DNA of 63,304 nucleotides from a virus (IMGVR_UViG_3300042934_000801:1-63304); one strand, 5' to 3'. Shown: positions 38,033-45,232, counted from the stretch's first letter. Made by a program: numbers and translations. Notes: generated by a model not told the origin, from the sequence alone.

Positions 38033-39171
38033 TGGCGTGGATCATCGACCGGCACCGCAAGGACGGCACCCCCTACTGGGCCGTGTGCTGGCGCGAGAGC
38101 GGCCGCAACGGCAAGCAGGAATCCATCACCTGGTACGACCGCGACGACGCCCTGCACTGCAAAGACCTCATCGACAAGCTCGGCCCCGAAAAGGCCCGCG
38201 ACATCATGAAGATCATCACCGAACCCCGGCGCGCGCAGACCGTCGCCGAGTTCCTGACCGCCCACGTCGACCACCTCACCGGCGTCGAACCCGGCACCAC
38301 GAAGCGATACCGCGCCTACATCCGCAACGACCTCGCTGGCATCGGCGACATCCCGCTTCGCGCGCTCACCCGGGAGGACGTCGCACGGTGGGTCAACGCG
38401 ATGAGCCAGACCAGCTCGGCCAAGACCGTGAAGAATAAACGCGACTTTCTGTCTGGCGCGCTCAAGGCCGCAGTGAAGGCCAAGGCCATCCCGGCCAACC
38501 CCGCCGAGGACGTCCGCAACCCGCGCTGGGACCGCCGCGAAATGGTGTTCTTGACCGCCGCAGAGTTCCGGATGCTGCTCGACGAGATCCCCGCCTACTG
38601 GAAGCCCCTGATCGAGTTCCTGGTCGCCTCCGGGGCGCGCTGGTCCGAAGCGACCGCGCTGCGGCCCGCCGACATCGACATCACACATGGCACGGTCCGG
38701 ATCTCGAAGGCGTGGAAGACCGGCAGCGACGACGGCGGATACACCCTCGGTGTCCCGAAGACCCGCAAGAGCGTCCGCACGATCAACGTGCCGGCCAGCG
38801 TGCTGGAGAAGCTCGACCTGACAGGGGAGTGGGTGTTCACCAACTCCGGGCGCGGCCGCGGCCAGAACGCCACCGAGAAGCTCGGCCCCGACCCGAACCC
38901 CGTGCGCATCCACTCGTTCGCACCGAACGTGTGGCGGCCGGCCATCGAGCGCGCCAAGCTCAAGGGGCTGACGAAGTCGCCCCGCATCCACGACCTGCGC
39001 CACACCGCGGCGTCATGGCTGCTGCAGGCCGGGCGGCCGATGCCGTCCGTACAGCAGCACCTCGGGCACGAGTCGATCCAGACCACCGTGGATGTCTATG
39101 GGCACCTGGACCGCTCGAGCGGCAAGGGCAACGCCGACGCGATCGACGCGATGCTCACACCGCTGGACTAG
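38032..39171 (+). CDS. int: Tyrosine integrase
   Basis: SGARWSE, HDLRHT, LGHESIQTTVDVYGH; TGATG coupling to the ATPase. Confidence 0.95.
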   Translation: MAWIIDRHRKDGTPYWAVCWRESGRNGKQESITWYDRDDALHCKDLIDKLGPEKARDIMKIITEPRRAQTVAEFLTAHVDHLTGVEPGTTKRYRAYIRNDLAGIGDIPLRALTREDVARWVNAMSQTSSAKTVKNKRDFLSGALKAAVKAKAIPANPAEDVRNPRWDRREMVFLTAAEFRMLLDEIPAYWKPLIEFLVASGARWSEATALRPADIDITHGTVRISKAWKTGSDDGGYTLGVPKTRKSVRTINVPASVLEKLDLTGEWVFTNSGRGRGQNATEKLGPDPNPVRIHSFAPNVWRPAIERAKLKGLTKSPRIHDLRHTAASWLLQAGRPMPSVQQHLGHESIQTTVDVYGHLDRSSGKGNADAIDAMLTPLD

Positions 39172-39191
39172 CGGGAACGAGCCCGCGTGGT

Positions 39192-39704
39192 TCACGGCAA
39201 AAGGACCGCCATCACGCCGGGGTCGATCCTCCAGGTCAGTGTGCCGCCATCGTTGAACACATGCACGGGGATGTCGTGTGGCGGCCCGCCGGCGGCTGTC
39301 ATCGTCGCCATTCCCTCGAACGAGGTGTCCCCGGTTCGCACGAGCGACACGTGGTGCACACGAACATTGAATTGCGGCTGCCCTGGGTCGGCGTCGAGTG
39401 TGTTCTGAATGTTGTTCAGGACTGTGCCGGCGAGCGCGTCGATGCCGTTGGGACTGGAGTTTGCAGGCGGTATGGCGGGGGCGGCCGGCGGACTATAGGT
39501 CGGTACCCACGGCACATTGCCGCCACTAAAGACCTTGGGGCCCTGATAGATCGGGTCGAAGTAACCGCCGGTACTTCCGTCGACGCACTTCTGATAGCCG
39601 GGACCGGTCTCGTAGCAGTACGGTGCAGCGGCAGCGACACCCGCCGACCCCGCGAAACATGTGGCTGTCGCGGCCAGTCCAAGCACAGCCAATCGGAAGG
39701 TCAT
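39192..39704 (-). CDS. Secreted hypothetical protein
   Basis: Signal peptide ending VAAAA-P, Cys pair, Pro-rich linker. Confidence 0.7.
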   Translation of the reverse strand: MTFRLAVLGLAATATCFAGSAGVAAAAPYCYETGPGYQKCVDGSTGGYFDPIYQGPKVFSGGNVPWVPTYSPPAAPAIPPANSSPNGIDALAGTVLNNIQNTLDADPGQPQFNVRVHHVSLVRTGDTSFEGMATMTAAGGPPHDIPVHVFNDGGTLTWRIDPGVMAVLLP

Positions 39705-39934
39705 AGGCGGAGATCGTATTGCCGACTGCTCACCCTGCGCAGCCGGTTCACCGTGGACGCTGCGTAGGCGAGCGCCCTCTCGGTCGCCAGAAGGCGATTC
39801 AGCAGCTGGTAGTACCGAGTCGGCGTCAGGCCCATCGCGCCGATTGCGGACTCTTTGCCACCAGCAGTGGCCCACCACTGCTGCTCAAGGTCAAGGATCG
39901 CGCGCTCCTGATCGGTCAGGGAATCCATAGCCAT
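39701..39934 (-). CDS. DUF3263-like protein
   Basis: LTDQERAILDLE.QWW...G.KE.AI...G..PTRYYQ.LN.L; GGAGG RBS. Confidence 0.8.
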   Translation of the reverse strand: MAMDSLTDQERAILDLEQQWWATAGGKESAIGAMGLTPTRYYQLLNRLLATERALAYAASTVNRLRRVSSRQYDLRL

Positions 39935-40359
39935 TGGTCCTCCAGGTGATATTCGAGCTGAGACACCTCGAGCGGGTCGAGAGTGGACATGCGGGTCTGC
40001 AGGGTGGGTTCGTCGACCCAGAGGTGCTCGGCGAGCTCGCATGGGTCTCGCGTCCAGCGCAGCCCGTTGGTGAGCGCAGGGAGCGTGATGAGGCGGCGTG
40101 CGCTGATCTCCTCGACGAGGCGCTCCTCGCGCTCCGCGGCAGCCGGTTCTTCCGGCACTGGGCCGCGCTCGCGGTGCACAAGCTCGTGCGTGAGGGTGCA
40201 GCGCCGCTCGGCCTGGGTCAGTCCGCGCGCCAACCAGATCCGCCGGCCAACCTGCAGCCCCATGACACGGTCCGGGAGCCGGTACCGGCAGGACACATCG
40301 ACGTCATCGTGATGATCGCGAAGCAGCCTCCACGGGTGGAAGAGCGATTCGATGCTCAT
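39916..40359 (-). CDS. ImmA/IrrE-family metallopeptidase (antirepressor protease)
   Basis: LTQAERRCTLTHELVH, EE..V...SARRLI, LAEHLWVD. Confidence 0.9.
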   Translation of the reverse strand: MSIESLFHPWRLLRDHHDDVDVSCRYRLPDRVMGLQVGRRIWLARGLTQAERRCTLTHELVHRERGPVPEEPAAAEREERLVEEISARRLITLPALTNGLRWTRDPCELAEHLWVDEPTLQTRMSTLDPLEVSQLEYHLEDQWLWIP

Positions 40360-40367
40360 GCCGACGG

Positions 40368-40389
40368 ACGGTAGGGGACACCTCCGACA
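40368..40389 (-). promoter_or_regulatory. PafBC (RecA-NDp) promoter
   Basis: TGTCGG-AGGTGTCCCC-TACCGT, exact consensus spacing, 8 nt before the ATG. Confidence 0.75.
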
Positions 40390-40409
40390 AGATCAGTGCC
40401 GCAACGGAA

Positions 40410-40970
40410 TTACGTTGTTGTAACTCCGTCGTCCAAAGACTCATCTTCGGGGTCGGGTCCCCAACCGATCGCTGACTCATTCAGATACATTCGACCGTTG
40501 ACGATGTATAACGGAAATTCTGGCGGAGGCTGCTTCAGCGTGAAACATATGCGCTCTAGTCCGGCCTCTACGTATGGCATCAAGAACGGCAGCACGTACT
40601 CAGTAGCGAAGCTCTGCAGATCTTCTTCGTTGAAAAGTTCGGTGTCGTCGAAGTTAACTACTGCGCCCTCTTCATAGATGGCAATATGCGATTCCAGCCG
40701 TGCGTGCGCTCTTAACCTAATCCCAACCATGGCTTTTGAGGAACGGCCGAGGGAGGGTTGGAGCCGTATGGTGCCTACTGGCGCATTGTCAATACTGTCG
40801 TCTTCGCGCTCATCTTTCACATGGCGCGCAAGGAAGTAGCTAGCCGCGTGGGACATCGACGTTGCCGCTTCCCAAATCTCGTGTGGCTCAGCAGAAGTCC
40901 GCTGCTCAGCAGTGCTTGAGCGTTCTTCAGTTTCTTCCGGCACGGTGCCTTCCTGGCTTGCTGTCGACAT
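40410..40970 (-). CDS. SecB-like chaperone of a TAC system (start may be GTG 40943)
   Basis: Acidic; beta strands then DLQSFATEYVLPFLMPYV...ICFTLKQPPPEFP, matching the SecB C-terminal helix-PY-helix-P..LP pattern. Confidence 0.7.
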   Translation of the reverse strand: MSTASQEGTVPEETEERSSTAEQRTSAEPHEIWEAATSMSHAASYFLARHVKDEREDDSIDNAPVGTIRLQPSLGRSSKAMVGIRLRAHARLESHIAIYEEGAVVNFDDTELFNEEDLQSFATEYVLPFLMPYVEAGLERICFTLKQPPPEFPLYIVNGRMYLNESAIGWGPDPEDESLDDGVTTT

Positions 40971-41445
40971 GCACACTCACGTGGGCGCGATTGTCTCGAA
41001 CTACTTCCTGGATTTGCTTTTTCCAGTCGGTGAAGACGGGAATTGGGCCGGTCATCTCCGACGGGCCCACCAACTCATGCAGCGTTGACGAGTCGACGTA
41101 TTCCCACTTCTGAAAAAGCTCATTTGGACTCGCTGTCTTCAATGTCCGGTGTATCGCGCGGTCGAGATAGACCCAGTGTTCATACCGGGCGCCGATGGAT
41201 GCCGCATAACGGCGGATCGTTGATAGGCGGGGATCCGCGCCCGGGCGCTCGAATTGACTCACGGCTGTCTTATGTCGACCCCAGGCGCGGCCAAGATCTT
41301 CCTGCGTCAGTCCGGCCGCGCGGCGTAAATCAGCGAGTTGGATCAGGAACTGTTCGTCGGCATGGGCCAAATCTGCAGCTAGTCGGGCCTCAACCGAATC
41401 TTCGCCAAGACCGAACTCTTCGGCTAACTCTTCCCAGATGCCCAT
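40927..41445 (-). CDS. HigA-like XRE antitoxin with long C-terminal extension (candidate ChAD)
   Basis: LADLRRAAGLTQEDLG......AVSQFE....DPRLSTIRRYAASIG followed by about 75 extra residues. Confidence 0.8.
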   Translation of the reverse strand: MGIWEELAEEFGLGEDSVEARLAADLAHADEQFLIQLADLRRAAGLTQEDLGRAWGRHKTAVSQFERPGADPRLSTIRRYAASIGARYEHWVYLDRAIHRTLKTASPNELFQKWEYVDSSTLHELVGPSEMTGPIPVFTDWKKQIQEVVRDNRAHVSVHVDSKPGRHRAGRN

Positions 41446-41461
41446 AAGTAGAGAATAACCT

Positions 41462-42037
41462 CTACTGGTTGCCGGGGGTGAGACTGTTGCCAAGCTGACG
41501 CCCCGCGCGCCAAGCTGAGAACTCCGATCTAGCCTGCTCGATGTGCTGCCGTTGAATTGCTTGCCAGTCGTCGGAAACGAGAGAAGACGGCTTACGACCG
41601 AAAACCAAGAACAGGATCAACGCCGGTTCGACCAGTGGCGCAGCGAAGTACATTCTGAACTGCCAACCGCGGATGTCCGTGTCACCGTGCCCGTTCACGG
41701 TGACCGGATGGCGAAGCTCTCCAAGCTGACTGTCGTTGCCCTCTAGCGGGAAACACCACTCAGAGTCGCGGTCGCCTTGCAGGCCCGAACCGCGAACGCA
41801 TCCGTTGACTGCGCGCTTTCGCAGGTCGAAGACATCTCGAAACAAGGTGGCAACCAATCTGCGACGGATTCCAATCTGCTTGTCTGTCAACAGTTCTCCG
41901 TCGTCGTCTTCCTCGAACTCCCTGCTAATGGCAGCGACAACTTCCCGTGCCTGTTGCTCATACAGCTGGGTTTCTTCCCATTCAGTTCGACCACCGAACT
42001 GTTGACGCCACGGGTCATAAGTGCCGATTTCACTCAC
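41462..42037 (-). CDS. Divergent RelE/HigB-like toxin
   Basis: LGELR...FRMYF......LILFLVFGRK...Q.QHIEQAR; directly upstream of the HTH antitoxin; start inferred. Confidence 0.6.
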   Translation of the reverse strand: MSEIGTYDPWRQQFGGRTEWEETQLYEQQAREVVAAISREFEEDDDGELLTDKQIGIRRRLVATLFRDVFDLRKRAVNGCVRGSGLQGDRDSEWCFPLEGNDSQLGELRHPVTVNGHGDTDIRGWQFRMYFAAPLVEPALILFLVFGRKPSSLVSDDWQAIQRQHIEQARSEFSAWRAGRQLGNSLTPGNQ

Positions 42038-42497
42038 TCGGGCCACCGCCGCTCCAATCGCAATCGCCCGACAGTTCGATGAAGCCTTGGACGTTTTCGA
42101 TAGGGAACTGCAGGACGGTCTCGCCGATCGGGGTGCTCCACAGCCCGACGACGTCCTGCTTATTCGCTCCTGCCCATTGCCACGCGTTGCACGCTGCAAC
42201 GTGTGGTGTCTGGTCGGCCGGGCCGACGTAAGTGCCGACCCATACCCCGGGCTGGAGGCCAGGTAGATCGGACGCGGGGTTGTTCACGGCGAATGTCTGC
42301 GAGGCGGCACGGGTCGTGGTCGCGGAGATGACCAACGTCCCAGCGGCGGACACCGGCGGATTAGAACGCGACGGCTGCGCCGGCGCAGCCGGACTCGTCA
42401 CGGTAACCGTTTCGGCGGGGGCCGCGGAGTCGGTCTGCGCGCCGCATCCGACGGTGACGCCGCACAGCGCCAGCGCGGTGATTCCTGTGCGGATCAC
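42030..42497 (-). CDS. Lipoprotein
   Basis: Lipobox VTVGC, ETVTVT/Pro-Ala linker, PGVW...C..W; GTGA overlap with the repressor stop. Confidence 0.75.
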   Translation of the reverse strand: MIRTGITALALCGVTVGCGAQTDSAAPAETVTVTSPAAPAQPSRSNPPVSAAGTLVISATTTRAASQTFAVNNPASDLPGLQPGVWVGTYVGPADQTPHVAACNAWQWAGANKQDVVGLWSTPIGETVLQFPIENVQGFIELSGDCDWSGGGPSE

Positions 42498-43981
42498 TCG
42501 TCGCTGCCCGGGTCTTGGGATTCCTCGCCGCCAGCTTCGCCCTGCTCGGACCGCCCTGGCGTGTAGTCGCGCGGTGTGATGCGTGCGGCGGCCGCTAACG
42601 CGCCGGAGTATCGAGTTCCTGTAGTGGCGAGCGTCAGAGACTGCAGATGTGAATCGAGCTCGGCGATCAACCGAGCGGCGTCCGCAGATACCAGCACTTC
42701 TTCGGTGTCCGCAGATACCTGCACATTTTGAAGCCTTTCCCGGGCTCGTCCAAGCGCCGCAGTCAAGGACGACAGCTGGGCAAGTTGCCCGGCCGGTGTA
42801 TCCGCGGCCGGAGTGAGAGATCGGAGGGTTTCTTCCAGCTCCTCCGACACGCCGAGCGACGGATCGAGCTCGTCCATCATCTGAAACAGTTCGCGCAGTT
42901 TCTGCGGTATCCACGGGGGCACTAGACCGTCTGGAAACAGTGCAATTATCGGCTGGACATCACCGCTCCGGCTCGTGGCGTCCCCCCGCTCTAATTGGCC
43001 TGGTGTGCTTCCCTCGGGGGCGGTGCGAGCGGCGATGAGGTGACGTTGGACGGAAGGCTCGTGAGTCGCAGACAGGCCGGACTCGATCCATGCGGCCTTG
43101 TCAAGCCGTAGTCGACGCACCAAGTCGCGTAGTAAATCCCCATGCAGCACTGCAGGTTTGCGGAGCACCACGGTCGGAGCCTTCGCGGCAATGTCTTCCA
43201 GCAATGGGATGAACGTCTCGCTGGTCGTTGCGAAGAAGTCGAATGCCTTGATGGCGGCGTCGATCTGTTGCGGTGTGGCGTGCAGGTCAACCATCTGCAT
43301 GGCGTCCAACGTGTCGACGGTTGCGGCTTCGTAGCGTTCGACGGCGAGATAGAACACAGCGACTGTGGTGTCGACGTCGTCGTCGGGTGTCAGCGATGAC
43401 AGCGTCGTCACAGCGTCGATCAGAGCCATGGTTGTCGCATGCTGCGCTTCGATGACCGCATGGTCGATCGTTGCCGCTTCGAGTTTCGGCAGTACCGCAG
43501 CGTCGAGCTCGAAAACCACGTTCGTCTGCGGGATGGCGAAGTCGATGGACGCGGCAGGCTTGGCATTTCCCAGGTCGGCATCTTTCAAAAGGCCTGCGAC
43601 GGCTTTCTCCGCAACGCTGCCGTGTTCTAACGCATTCTGAACCATCCGCTCTTTTCCTAGCTCGGAGCGACTACGCACCCCTTTCATGCGTCGCTGGACT
43701 TCGGCGAGTAGTTCGTCGTCGGTGAGGGCGTCTGGCCCGCGGTGAATCTCGATGGCTTCCGCTGCTTCAGTGCCGGTGAGGTAGCCAGCGGCGACCAACG
43801 CCTCGACAGGCGGTCTGCCGTAGGCGCGGCTGAATACGACGACCGATTGAGCGCTGGGCTCGTTGTGTCCTTTGGACCACCGGGAGATGACTGTGGTGCC
43901 GATGCCTGAGACGTCGGCAATCTTCTTCTGTTCATCCGTCCCGGCAATCCGAGTCACGTAGTTCCACCACTCATTGGCCAC
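42494..43981 (-). CDS. Immunity repressor (XRE HTH) with very long C-terminal region
   Basis: QKKIADVSGIGTTVISRW..G...P, EALVAAGYL, LTDDELLAEV.RR; divergent from cro; TACGCT -10 six nt before GTG. Confidence 0.8.
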   Translation of the reverse strand: MANEWWNYVTRIAGTDEQKKIADVSGIGTTVISRWSKGHNEPSAQSVVVFSRAYGRPPVEALVAAGYLTGTEAAEAIEIHRGPDALTDDELLAEVQRRMKGVRSRSELGKERMVQNALEHGSVAEKAVAGLLKDADLGNAKPAASIDFAIPQTNVVFELDAAVLPKLEAATIDHAVIEAQHATTMALIDAVTTLSSLTPDDDVDTTVAVFYLAVERYEAATVDTLDAMQMVDLHATPQQIDAAIKAFDFFATTSETFIPLLEDIAAKAPTVVLRKPAVLHGDLLRDLVRRLRLDKAAWIESGLSATHEPSVQRHLIAARTAPEGSTPGQLERGDATSRSGDVQPIIALFPDGLVPPWIPQKLRELFQMMDELDPSLGVSEELEETLRSLTPAADTPAGQLAQLSSLTAALGRARERLQNVQVSADTEEVLVSADAARLIAELDSHLQSLTLATTGTRYSGALAAAARITPRDYTPGRSEQGEAGGEESQDPGSDE

Positions 43982-43993
43982 ACAACCAGCGTA

Positions 43994-44176
43994 TTGCGCC
44001 CACGCAAGATTCTGGGCTGCCAAAACGCACTTGCGTCCACGCAAGTGCCCAGCAGGTGGACTTACACGGTTGTCTTTCAGCACTGCATAGGCGCAATCAG
44101 CCACCGTTACCGAACCGTGACCTTTCTTGATTGCGCGTATGCAATCCCTCCCGTACATTCAATCGCATGGCCGCAA
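43994..44176. promoter_or_regulatory. Operator array, consensus TTGCG-N4-CGCAA
   Basis: Copies at 43994, 44031, 44083, 44131 and 44163, with a weaker one at 44017. Confidence 0.8.
44131..44159 (+). promoter_or_regulatory. Early lytic promoter (PR-like)
   Basis: TTGCGC-17 nt-TACATT; the -35 overlaps one operator and another covers the start site. Confidence 0.7.
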
Positions 44177-44210
44177 GATTGCAGGCCAGGGGCTTAGAAG
44201 GAGGTGAAGG

Positions 44211-44453
44211 GTGTTGGCCACTCTCGAACTGAACCAGGCCGGACTGGCAAAGATTCGCCGCCTCTCAGGGCTGAAGTTTGACCACGAACTCGCTACCCGA
44301 ATCAAGGTCGACGCGACCACCGTGTCCCGCGTACTCACAGGCAAGAGCGCACCCGGACCGCGATTCATTGCGGGCTGCGTCGAGGCATTCGGCGCCGACT
44401 GCTTCACCGACCTCTTCAACGTCGTCCCTGACGACGAGCAGGTGGTCGCATGA
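44211..44453 (+). CDS. cro: Cro-like HTH protein
   Basis: ELATRIKVDATTVSRVLTG...PGPRFIA; AGGAGG RBS. Confidence 0.8.
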   Translation: MLATLELNQAGLAKIRRLSGLKFDHELATRIKVDATTVSRVLTGKSAPGPRFIAGCVEAFGADCFTDLFNVVPDDEQVVA

Positions 44454-45232
44454 CCGTCGTCGAGCTGTTCACCTACGACACAAACCACGTCCGTGTGCTC
44501 CGCGATGAGGACGGCGAGCCGTGGTTTGTGCTGGCCGACCTCTGCCGAGTCCTTGCCATCCGCAACGGCCGCGATGTGGCAGCACGTCTCACCGGTGACC
44601 AAAAGGGTGTCGCTCAGATCGACACCCTTGGCGGCACCCAGCAGATGACCACTGTCAGTGAGTCGGGCATGTACGAGGTGGTCATCCGCTCCGACAAGCC
44701 GGAAGCGGCCACCTTCCGTCGCTGGATCACCGGCGAAGTACTGCCGGCAATCCGCAAGACCGGCACCTACTCGCGCTACCCCGCGGCTCCCGCGCAGCTG
44801 CCGTCCAAAAAGGAACTCGCTCAGTGGGTGGTCGAGGCCGAGGAACGCGCCGAAGCTGCCGAGGCCCGTGCCCGCGAGCTCGCCGCACCCGCATCAGCAT
44901 GGAACGAACTGGCCGAAGCCAAGGGCGACTACTCCGTCGCAGACGCAGCGAAAGTGCTCAGCCGCGACCCGCACATCAGCACCGGCGAGCGCCGCCTGTT
45001 CGCCGCGATGGCAGCCAAGTCGTGGATCCACCGGCGCGGCGGCCGGTGGCGCGCATATCAGTCGCAGGTCGACAACGGCCGCCTGGTCGAAAAGGTCAAC
45101 CGCCCGTACCTGAACAGCGCCGAAGAGATGGTCGTCCCGGCCCCCACGATCCGGATTACACCCAAGGGGCTCACCGCGCTGCACCAGATGCTGGGCGGCA
45201 GTGGACAACTCGCACTGGTGGCTGTCTCATGA
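44450..45232 (+). CDS. BRO-N / KilA-C antirepressor
   Basis: GEPWFVLADLC, VSESGMY, FRRWITGEVLPAIRKTG.Y, RITPKGL. Confidence 0.92.
   Translation: MTVVELFTYDTNHVRVLRDEDGEPWFVLADLCRVLAIRNGRDVAARLTGDQKGVAQIDTLGGTQQMTTVSESGMYEVVIRSDKPEAATFRRWITGEVLPAIRKTGTYSRYPAAPAQLPSKKELAQWVVEAEERAEAAEARARELAAPASAWNELAEAKGDYSVADAAKVLSRDPHISTGERRLFAAMAAKSWIHRRGGRWRAYQSQVDNGRLVEKVNRPYLNSAEEMVVPAPTIRITPKGLTALHQMLGGSGQLALVAVS

Follow-up and report, generated by a model that had tools for sequence, protein, structure and literature searches.

Toxin-antitoxin-chaperone (TAC) systems form an established class of stress and anti-phage modules. The present analysis concerns a candidate module of this type in a 63,304-base stretch of viral DNA (IMGVR_UViG_3300042934_000801:1-63304; hereafter the window, meaning the whole stretch that was analysed), in which three consecutive open reading frames (ORFs) on the minus strand, designated P1, P2 and P3, span positions 42037..40410. 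A first-pass annotation of this DNA had proposed that these genes encode a divergent toxin, a tailed antitoxin and a SecB-like chaperone. It is probable, on the evidence presented here, that the trio is a HigBA-type TAC module, carried as an insert of low guanine-plus-cytosine (GC) content in the gene chain that leads from the repressor to the integrase of a temperate phage with a Mycobacteriaceae host.

Closest described systems

In Mycobacterium tuberculosis, the toxin HigB1 (Rv1955), the antitoxin HigA1 (Rv1956) and the chaperone SecB-TA (Rv1957) have been described as products of one operon, in that order (PMC5105189, PMC3581621). The phage trio, as the first-pass annotation had noticed, follows the same order of a candidate toxin, an XRE-family antitoxin-like protein with a C-terminal extension and a SecB-like protein, and its genes lie on the same strand, adjacent to each other and either tightly spaced or overlapping. 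Moreover, among solved structures, P3 is matched best by Rv1957 bound to the chaperone addiction (ChAD) peptide of its antitoxin (5mtw), and HigB1 is reported to be a Gp49-like toxin of the RelE fold with a long C-terminal helix (PMC9098466), Gp49 being the sole family for which P1 gives a signal. On the other hand, P1 and P3 miss the Pfam models of the two families (PF05973 and PF02556, respectively), and P1 is an acidic protein of 191 residues with approximately 60 extra residues at its N-terminus. The M. tuberculosis system also resides in a chromosomal island, whereas the module described here is phage-borne and embedded in a repressor gene chain.

[quoted passage not shown] The earlier statement that these E. 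coli systems sense phage structural proteins agrees with such reports, but its designation of CmdTAC as a prophage system does not, since the word "prophage" has no occurrence in the Nature paper on CmdTAC. The characterized TAC systems considered here are chromosomal ones, from M. tuberculosis and E. coli strains. Unlike the RelE-type toxin proposed here, CmdT is an ADP-ribosyltransferase, and the PADLOC models miss both P1 and P3. The trigger mechanism suggested below for the phage module is borrowed from the E. coli systems by analogy only. Modularity of TAC systems has also been published, in that TAC chaperones are reported to associate with HigBA, MqsRA and HicAB pairs (PMC5105189) and a hybrid HigC-CmdTA system is described as functional (bioRxiv 10.1101/2024.02.24.581848).

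Two further types of system resemble parts of the locus. In the two-gene gp49-gp48 and Gp49 (PF05973)-helix-turn-helix (HTH) pairs, as described, the toxin gene lies upstream of the gene for an XRE-HTH antitoxin (PMC3581621, PMC11980606), and P1 aligns with nearly the whole Gp49 domain. These pairs come without a chaperone gene and their antitoxins without a long tail, whereas the phage module has candidates for both, and P1 escapes the PF05973 hidden Markov model (HMM). The position of the trio recalls lambda cI-rexA-rexB and genes 45-44-43 of Gordonia phage CarolAnn, where accessory genes are located directly downstream of the immunity repressor. In CarolAnn, the defence genes 43 and 44 are reported to be co-transcribed with the repressor, and such repressor-cotranscribed genes are described as being expressed in lysogens and defending against unrelated phages (PMC6426606). 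However, these are RexAB-like two-gene systems that are not toxic alone and bear no sequence or fold relation to P1-P3, and co-transcription, which characterizes the lambda and CarolAnn type, is indicated here solely by overlaps of start and stop codons. Among the titles listed in the literature searches, none describes a TAC module from a mycobacteriophage or any other actinophage, although supplementary tables of TAC surveys could list relatives; Sala et al. mention that a prophage region of M. smegmatis contains a pair of antitoxin and chaperone.

Gene layout and base composition

P1, the candidate toxin gene (191 aa), occupies 41462..42037 and starts with GTG, and P2, the candidate antitoxin gene (172 aa), occupies 40927..41445 and starts with ATG, both on the minus strand. 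P3 (40410..40970, minus strand), whose product shows a SecB fold in the model, could begin either at the ATG at 40970 (186 aa) or at the GTG at 40943 (177 aa). The GTG is more likely to be the true start, because a Shine-Dalgarno-like AGGAAGG (40948..40954, minus strand) lies four nucleotides upstream of it, inside the 3' end of P2, and a homologue with 85% identity (P0002) starts at the equivalent residue. P1 and P2 are separated by 16 nucleotides, and the start of P3 lies within P2, with an overlap of 17 or 44 nucleotides according to the start chosen. Upstream of P1, the TGA of a lipoprotein-like gene (42032-42030) lies on the GTG of P1 (42037) in an overlap of 8 nucleotides, and the TGA of a repressor-like gene (42496-42494) lies on the GTG of the lipoprotein-like gene (42497) in a 4-nucleotide GTGA overlap, so that the proposed chain of overlaps to the repressor and lipoprotein genes is present in the sequence.

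The trio is also AT-rich, as had been recognized from the beginning. Its GC content of 0.562, compared with 0.650 in the whole window, is the lowest among 1234 sliding windows of 1628 nucleotides, and the GC content at third codon positions is 0.57-0.64 in the three genes versus 0.78-0.82 in the lipoprotein and protease genes on either side. As the lowest-GC 1.6 kb in the phage, the module looks acquired, in the form of an insert that is compositionally distinct from the flanking lysogeny genes. The conservation of homologues of all three genes, in the same order, in other genomes indicates that they are more than chance ORFs.

A SecB-like fold in P3

No match of P3 was found in Pfam (E <= 1), PHROGs, PADLOC, NCBIfam or the PDB sequences, nor by tblastn against phages, and just 12 relatives were recovered when 1.84 billion representatives were scanned exhaustively with HMMER. 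An AlphaFold2 (AF2) model based on an alignment of 13 sequences, with a predicted local distance difference test score (pLDDT) of 83.1 and a predicted template modelling score of 0.73, comprises four beta strands and a long helix of 30 residues (115-144), followed by a conserved PPxFP loop. When this model was compared with the PDB by Foldseek, the four chains of 5mtw, which is the M. tuberculosis Rv1957 SecB-like chaperone with the HigA1 ChAD peptide, ranked first (E 8.9e-6 to 2.3e-5), and E. coli SecB came next. Seven of the eight matches at E <= 0.001 are chains of either 5mtw or 1qyn (E. coli SecB), the eighth being the uncharacterized 2o2a. Structural alignment by VIA-align gave a Z score of 11.9 with 5mtw_C (125 residues, root mean square deviation 3.6), 10.2 with 1qyn_C and 8.5-9.6 with other SecB entries and two uncharacterized streptococcal proteins; unrelated folds, with beta-lactamases at the top, reached 5.1 or less. 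The sequence identity of P3 and Rv1957 is approximately 15%. Among the viral models of BFVD, the best match is an uncharacterized protein of 182 residues from Gordonia phage JuJu, equal in length to gp44, which stands third in the corresponding trio of that phage (an agreement by length only). The matches also include two phage proteins that bear the name SecB. The P3 monomer, as modelled, has the fold of SecB, a protein that assembles as a tetramer, and the expectation that such a fold would be encoded at 40410..40970 is thereby borne out.

P3 is acidic (isoelectric point 4.4, with 35 Asp and Glu versus 14 Lys and Arg residues) and carries the stretch ...FATEYVLPFLMPYVEAGLERICFTLKQPPPEFP..., both of which had been pointed out in the first-pass annotation. 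In the P3 family, F152 and P153 are invariant; they belong to the PPxFP loop right after the long helix. It has been reported for Rv1957 that residues L154-P155-P156-L157, which follow helix alpha1, contact Y114 of ChAD and that their mutation affects ChAD binding most (PMC6377645). The PPxFP loop of P3 appears to be the positional equivalent of this LPPL contact site.

P2 as a tailed XRE-type candidate antitoxin

The HTH of P2 is detected by HTH_31 (1.3e-7) and HTH_3 (1e-4) of Pfam and by phrog_1373 (1.5e-9). Weak matches were obtained with two antitoxin models of NCBIfam (MqsA family, 5.2e-4; Y4mF/HipB, 7.9e-4) and with HigA structures (E 0.4-0.5). Among P2 relatives, residues 1 to approximately 95-100, comprising an N-terminal segment and the XRE HTH, are strongly conserved, and the tails that follow the HTH (approximately 25-90 residues) vary in length and sequence and show little similarity. 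A conserved DNA-binding part and a C-terminal extension of variable length and composition have been described for TAC antitoxins (PMC5105189). The tail of P2 itself (residues 101-172; 40930..41145, minus strand), a candidate for the aromatic-enriched ChAD type of extension, contains the segments ..ELFQKWEY.. and ..FTDWKK..; with 72 residues, including two Trp, one Tyr and two Phe, it closely fits the aromatic tail of roughly 75 residues that had been proposed. By eye, and with no chance test, 18 of 21 tails in the P2 family contain at least one Trp. Judged from its sequence, P2 is an XRE-HTH antitoxin-like protein with an aromatic-containing variable tail, and a ChAD role of this tail is a candidate function. 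A complex prediction for P2(1-100) with P1 yielded an ipSAE of 0.02, which, as controls were not run, is evidence neither for nor against an interaction.

P1 and the Gp49/HigB family

The family of P1 was compared with Gp49 by profile-profile alignment. In the bacterial family concerned, 9 of 81 genomes yielded 14 PF05973 matches, from which the Gp49 set was derived; one sequence with an internal stop was dropped, which left 13 actinobacterial sequences, and one HTH fusion was cut to its toxin part. With hhalign, the score increased from 20.1 for 11 P1-family sequences (P 0.023, probability 2.1%) to 22.9 for 18 sequences (P 0.0053, probability 6.8%), 30.8 for 25 sequences (P 1.5e-4, probability 51%) and 33.0 for 35 sequences (P 5.9e-5, probability 65%). 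The identical region was aligned at every depth, and the score grew as more distant P1 relatives joined. As for the controls, 30 column-shuffled Gp49 alignments scored 6.9-12.2 in the 25-sequence run and at most 16.0 in the 35-sequence run, a reversed alignment scored 9, and scores of 10-16 were obtained with the families of P2 and P3. The 35-sequence alignment covers 100 columns and places P1 residues 61-180 on positions 6-107 of the 112 positions of Gp49.

Within this region, hhalign places E107-L108-R109 (GELR), R128-x-Y130, the K149 region and the helix 156-181 of P1 on the ELR, R-x-Y/F, K and terminal helix of Gp49, with an uncertainty of one residue in that R148, not K149, is put on the Gp49 Lys; a P1 insertion of approximately 10 residues separates the ELR and R-x-Y segments in the 35-sequence alignment. 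R128, Y130, K149 and Q162 are invariant across 25 P1-family sequences. For HigB-TAC, a catalytic set of E66, R68, R77, F93 and K95 and a long alpha3 helix that is typical of Gp49-like toxins have been described (PMC9098466); the correspondence of P1 and HigB-TAC residues is drawn by analogy with that source, with no direct alignment. In the ESM Atlas, a protein with 92% identity to P1 (P0004) has a model with a pLDDT of 0.72, whose neighbours by structure comprise three actinobacterial clusters without a name and one cluster that is 99% PF05973, the latter matching with a template modelling score of 0.52 by query and 0.70 by target over 120 residues. When language-model features are compared, a Gp49 cluster is again the nearest of those with a name (0.85; a lead only). 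It is probable, from profile and model comparisons, that the domain at approximately residues 61-180 of P1 adopts a Gp49/HigB-type fold of the RelE/ParE superfamily, probably with an N-terminal extension of approximately 60 residues ahead of it. The RelE/HigB likeness given in the original description of P1 escapes Pfam, PHROGs, NCBIfam and PADLOC and is seen only in profile-profile and predicted-structure comparisons.

Distribution of the trio in phages and bacteria

The Gordonia phages Wrigley (gp48-47-46) and JuJu (gp46-45-44) encode homologues of both P1 and P2, with a third gene after them, and these trios sit directly after the annotated immunity repressor. By hhalign (probability 91.9%, E 6.8e-7), the third genes prove to be remotely homologous to P3. 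A P2 relative was also found in a third phage, BeeGee. The trio proteins of Wrigley and JuJu have been deposited as hypothetical or generic HTH proteins, and P1 and P3 have no family match in four libraries, which agrees with the earlier view that the module is too divergent for routine annotation. The trio also occurs in a 56-kb viral contig (L004), where it adjoins the integrase without the protease, and in a Gordonia chromosome (L005), where it lies between a SEC-C-motif gene and kinase/transporter genes (ORF translations read by eye) and no phage genes were noticed among the flanking ORFs inspected.

In a survey of 401 genomes of the bacterial family, P1 relatives were detected in 9, and a P2 relative lies immediately downstream in all 9; the third gene was detected by the P3 HMMs in 5 of these 9 loci. 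A SecB-like third ORF was seen by eye at one further locus (L027), which was not recovered by the P3-superfamily profile and is uncertain. This broader profile (A9) found 32 places in 27 of the 401 genomes. Among the 30 P3-superfamily loci returned, 13 have P1 and P2 HMM matches directly upstream and 3 have a P2 match only, of which two contain a P1-like ORF by eye and the third has a weak Gp49 Pfam match (5.8e-4) beside an HTH_37 neighbour; the remaining 14 follow a different gene pair. The Pfam SecB model (PF02556) had no match in 201 sampled genomes of the family, and the actinobacterial SecB-like superfamily, as seen in these sequence searches, is effectively unannotated by current models. 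Pattern-based locus searches found no P3 in viral contigs, P1 in one viral contig, and one genome locus overall. The trio is a conserved mobile unit.

Several additional arrangements were observed around the SecB-like superfamily and the Gp49 domain. At 14 loci (L036, L042-L044, L046-L053, L055 and L059), a protein of approximately 100 residues (KGWRLR.QGHKY) and an HTH protein of approximately 215 residues precede the SecB-like gene, which looks like another tripartite system. A HicA/HicB label for this pair was considered and dropped, as Pfam gave no match for the small protein and a weak HTH_3 match (E 0.0062) for the other. At another locus (L054:506-1519, minus strand), a P3-superfamily protein carries a fused C-terminal part of approximately 180 residues, for which a weak match of Bestrophin-like type was obtained (7.7e-5, under the cut-off), and the fusion gene is preceded by genes for a weak Gp49-like toxin and an HTH_37 antitoxin. 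Finally, a Gp49-domain ORF of 201 residues (L008; G080:C5:76656-76919, minus strand) runs into an HTH-like C-terminal half and looks like a toxin-antitoxin fusion of the kind that Gerdes 2025 includes in a tabulation.

The host phage and its lysogeny region

The record that makes up the window is that of a complete virus and has direct terminal repeats. The large terminase encoded in it shares 82% identity with the large terminases of five prophage records from M. abscessus and 62% with the one of Gordonia phage GAL1, which suggests a temperate phage of a Mycobacteriaceae-type host; the label "mycobacterial phage" that had been given to it is reasonable on this sequence evidence. Among public sequencing runs, the DNA of the phage is nearly completely represented in one soil metagenome alone, possibly the source itself, and a share of 0.09 was listed for a root metagenome; no RNA run was listed. 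A nucleotide search with positions 39100-44300 against 50,697 phage records gave no match, and a repeat search of 39800-42700 found short repeats only, which are probably due to chance. Two terminator-like sites were found in a promoter and terminator scan of 39000-45000, fewer than in shuffled sequence and hence uninformative.

The leftward minus-strand chain in which the module lies is headed by an immunity-repressor-like gene (42494..44158, minus strand; 554 aa) and runs toward a tyrosine-integrase-like ORF on the plus strand that ends at 39171 in the lysogeny region. The repressor-like gene, which is context and lies outside the module, encodes an HTH near its N-terminus and matches the transcriptional regulator family phrog_19579 (2.4e-35), the repressor family phrog_3949 (2.4e-31) and HTH_3 of Pfam (2.1e-4). 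Its product is unusually long at 554 residues; the phrog repressor-family matches are confined to residues 61-167, and no family match was found for the remaining 390 or so residues. To the right of this gene lie a rightward small HTH ORF and an ORF taken as an antirepressor, a label that is based on a position matching that of the annotated antirepressors of Wrigley and JuJu and not on any search.

Two lipoprotein-like genes belong to the same leftward chain. The first (42030..42497, minus strand; 155 aa) encodes a signal-peptide-like N-terminal stretch ending in ...TVGC, with the lipobox read by eye, has no family match in Pfam, PHROGs or NCBIfam, and shows a GC content of 0.673, which is normal for the phage, unlike that of the trio. 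The second, a lipoprotein-like or secreted-protein-like gene (39192-39878, minus strand), has no family match either. It is possible that the two genes (42030-42497 and 39192-39878) encode lysogen-expressed surface proteins, perhaps with a role in superinfection exclusion.

An ImmA/IrrE-type (M78) metalloprotease-like gene with an HExxH motif (39916..40359, minus strand) begins 50 nucleotides downstream of P3 and matches phrog_87 (metallo-protease, 7.7e-19) and Peptidase_M78 (0.0088, under the Pfam cut-off). It is overlapped by a small DUF3263/NapA-like HTH ORF listed at 39701..40042 (minus strand; PF11662, 1.2e-21; phrog_5316, 3.1e-26; NF053843, 5.6e-18, under the cut-off), whose true start is probably near 39934. 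The combination of trio, M78 protease and DUF3263-like gene recurs in Wrigley (L001:5487-6118 for the last two genes, with the protease as gp45) and at one genomic locus (L041). In another locus (L037) the protease gene follows the trio, and JuJu has two similar-sized genes at that position; neither the protease nor the DUF3263-like gene is found beside the trio in the 56-kb contig or the Gordonia chromosome. The five genes may either work together or merely share a prophage backbone.

Proposed mode of action and alternative explanations

By analogy with the described systems, P1 would be a Gp49/HigB-like mRNA endonuclease, probably a ribosome-dependent one, and P2 would bind and neutralize it through its conserved N-terminal and HTH part and probably regulate its own expression. 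The aromatic tail would make P2 unstable unless it is held by P3, which would shield it from proteolysis. Titration of P3 by a competing client, a part played in the E. coli systems by a freshly synthesized structural protein of the infecting phage, would then expose P2 to degradation and allow P1 to halt translation. The toxicity of P1, its neutralization, chaperone addiction, the trigger and anti-phage activity are all carried over from those systems in this scheme. The module is probably expressed in lysogens, because it is translationally chained to the repressor-like gene, the sole basis for this suggestion. Most plausibly, it would act in abortive-infection defence against other phages, in retention of the prophage, or in both.

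Several observations weigh against the TAC interpretation, and its weakest link is the identity of P1 as a toxin. P1 has no match in Pfam, PHROGs, PADLOC or NCBIfam, and PDB-sequence profile searches with it gave no toxin. The Gp49 model PF05973 matches none of the 25 P1-family members scanned, nor any in a set of 11 members, and detects nothing in a six-frame translation of the window even at E <= 10. The best P1-Gp49 profile-profile probability is only 65%, and the structure match in the ESM Atlas was flagged as lying under the naming bar ("name no family"). The AF2 model of P1, built from an alignment of 9 sequences, is poor (pLDDT 49) and shows mostly helix in places where strands would be expected. 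P1 is acidic overall (isoelectric point 5.07), whereas a basic character is usual for RelE-type toxins that depend on the ribosome. P3 and four of its relatives fall short of the Pfam SecB model (PF02556), and a scan for sigma-70-like promoters, which is uninformative for actinobacteria, found none in 39000-45000. Moreover, in 3 of the 9 genomic loci with P1 relatives, the SecB-like gene is replaced by a gene for a DUF6941 protein of approximately 135 residues (L023:478-900, L026:490-900 and L028:558-980, all on the minus strand; Pfam E 3.6e-3, 1.3e-4 and 4.3e-8, of which the last alone passes the cut-off), and the antitoxins of these loci keep tails of 70-85 residues. The third partner is thus exchangeable; it may not be a dedicated chaperone of P2 and could be primarily a sensor. 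No paper mentioning DUF6941 was found in the literature that was searched.

In one alternative explanation, P1 and P2 form an ordinary two-component TA pair, to which a swappable accessory such as a sensor, an adaptor or a passenger has been added in place of an addiction chaperone. The DUF6941 loci speak for it, as does the different upstream pair at 14 of the 30 P3-superfamily loci, which makes both partners combinatorial. Such an explanation is nevertheless rather unlikely: modularity has itself been published for TAC systems (PMC5105189; the hybrid HigC-CmdTA), a long non-conserved tail follows the HTH in every P2 relative examined, as the addiction model requires, and the closest solved structure to P3 is a TA-associated chaperone bound to a ChAD peptide. 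A related and tentative extension of the TAC interpretation, somewhat doubtful at present, is that P1-P2 represent the core of a family with an exchangeable third-gene sensor or stabilizer, that DUF6941, if it holds the tail of the antitoxin in the manner of SecB-TA, is a second, non-SecB type of addiction chaperone or phage sensor, and that the actinobacterial SecB-like superfamily marks a large unannotated reservoir of TAC-type modules in Mycobacteriaceae and their phages.

Two other explanations relate to the neighbourhood of the trio. It appears improbable that the trio is a lysogeny-control circuit, in which P2 would be a second XRE regulator and P1 and P3 modulators acting with the ImmA-like protease and the DUF3263 protein. 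The trio does lie between the repressor-like gene and the M78 protease-like gene, the block with protease and DUF3263-like gene recurs in Wrigley and L041 and the trio with the protease in L037, and P1 neither matches a toxin HMM nor is basic. However, there is no protease or repressor near the trio in L004, where it lies by the integrase, or in L005, its GC content marks it as an insert apart from the flanking lysogeny genes, and regulators would not be expected to have the SecB fold seen in P3 or the Gp49-type signal seen in P1. A role of P3 as a SecB-type export or folding chaperone for one or both of the neighbouring lipoproteins, with the adjacency to P1-P2 being incidental, is very improbable. 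SecB is an export chaperone, and lipoprotein-like genes lie on both sides of the trio in the same chain (42497..42030 and 39878..39192); yet P2 and P1 genes are upstream in Wrigley, JuJu and L005 with no adjacent lipoprotein gene noticed among the inspected ORFs, P1 and P2 matches lie directly upstream in 13 of 30 P3-superfamily loci, and the lipoprotein gene has the normal phage GC content (0.673) where that of the trio is low. A highly divergent HigBA-type TAC module in the repressor operon of an actinophage, missed by standard annotation, is most likely. The structural part of the first-pass annotation, namely a toxin, a tailed XRE antitoxin and a SecB-like chaperone, is supported, and its interpretation as a whole is partly supported.

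Implications for actinophages and their hosts

If the TAC interpretation is true, temperate actinophages carry TAC modules in their repressor operons, and a mechanistically understood candidate would join the defence systems mediated by prophages, of which few are known in mycobacteria and Gordonia. The homologues in isolated phages, such as Wrigley and JuJu, make the module directly testable in laboratory strains. As the models of Pfam, PHROGs, NCBIfam and PADLOC reach neither the toxin nor the chaperone family, this class would be undercounted when actinobacteria and their phages are surveyed for TA and defence content.

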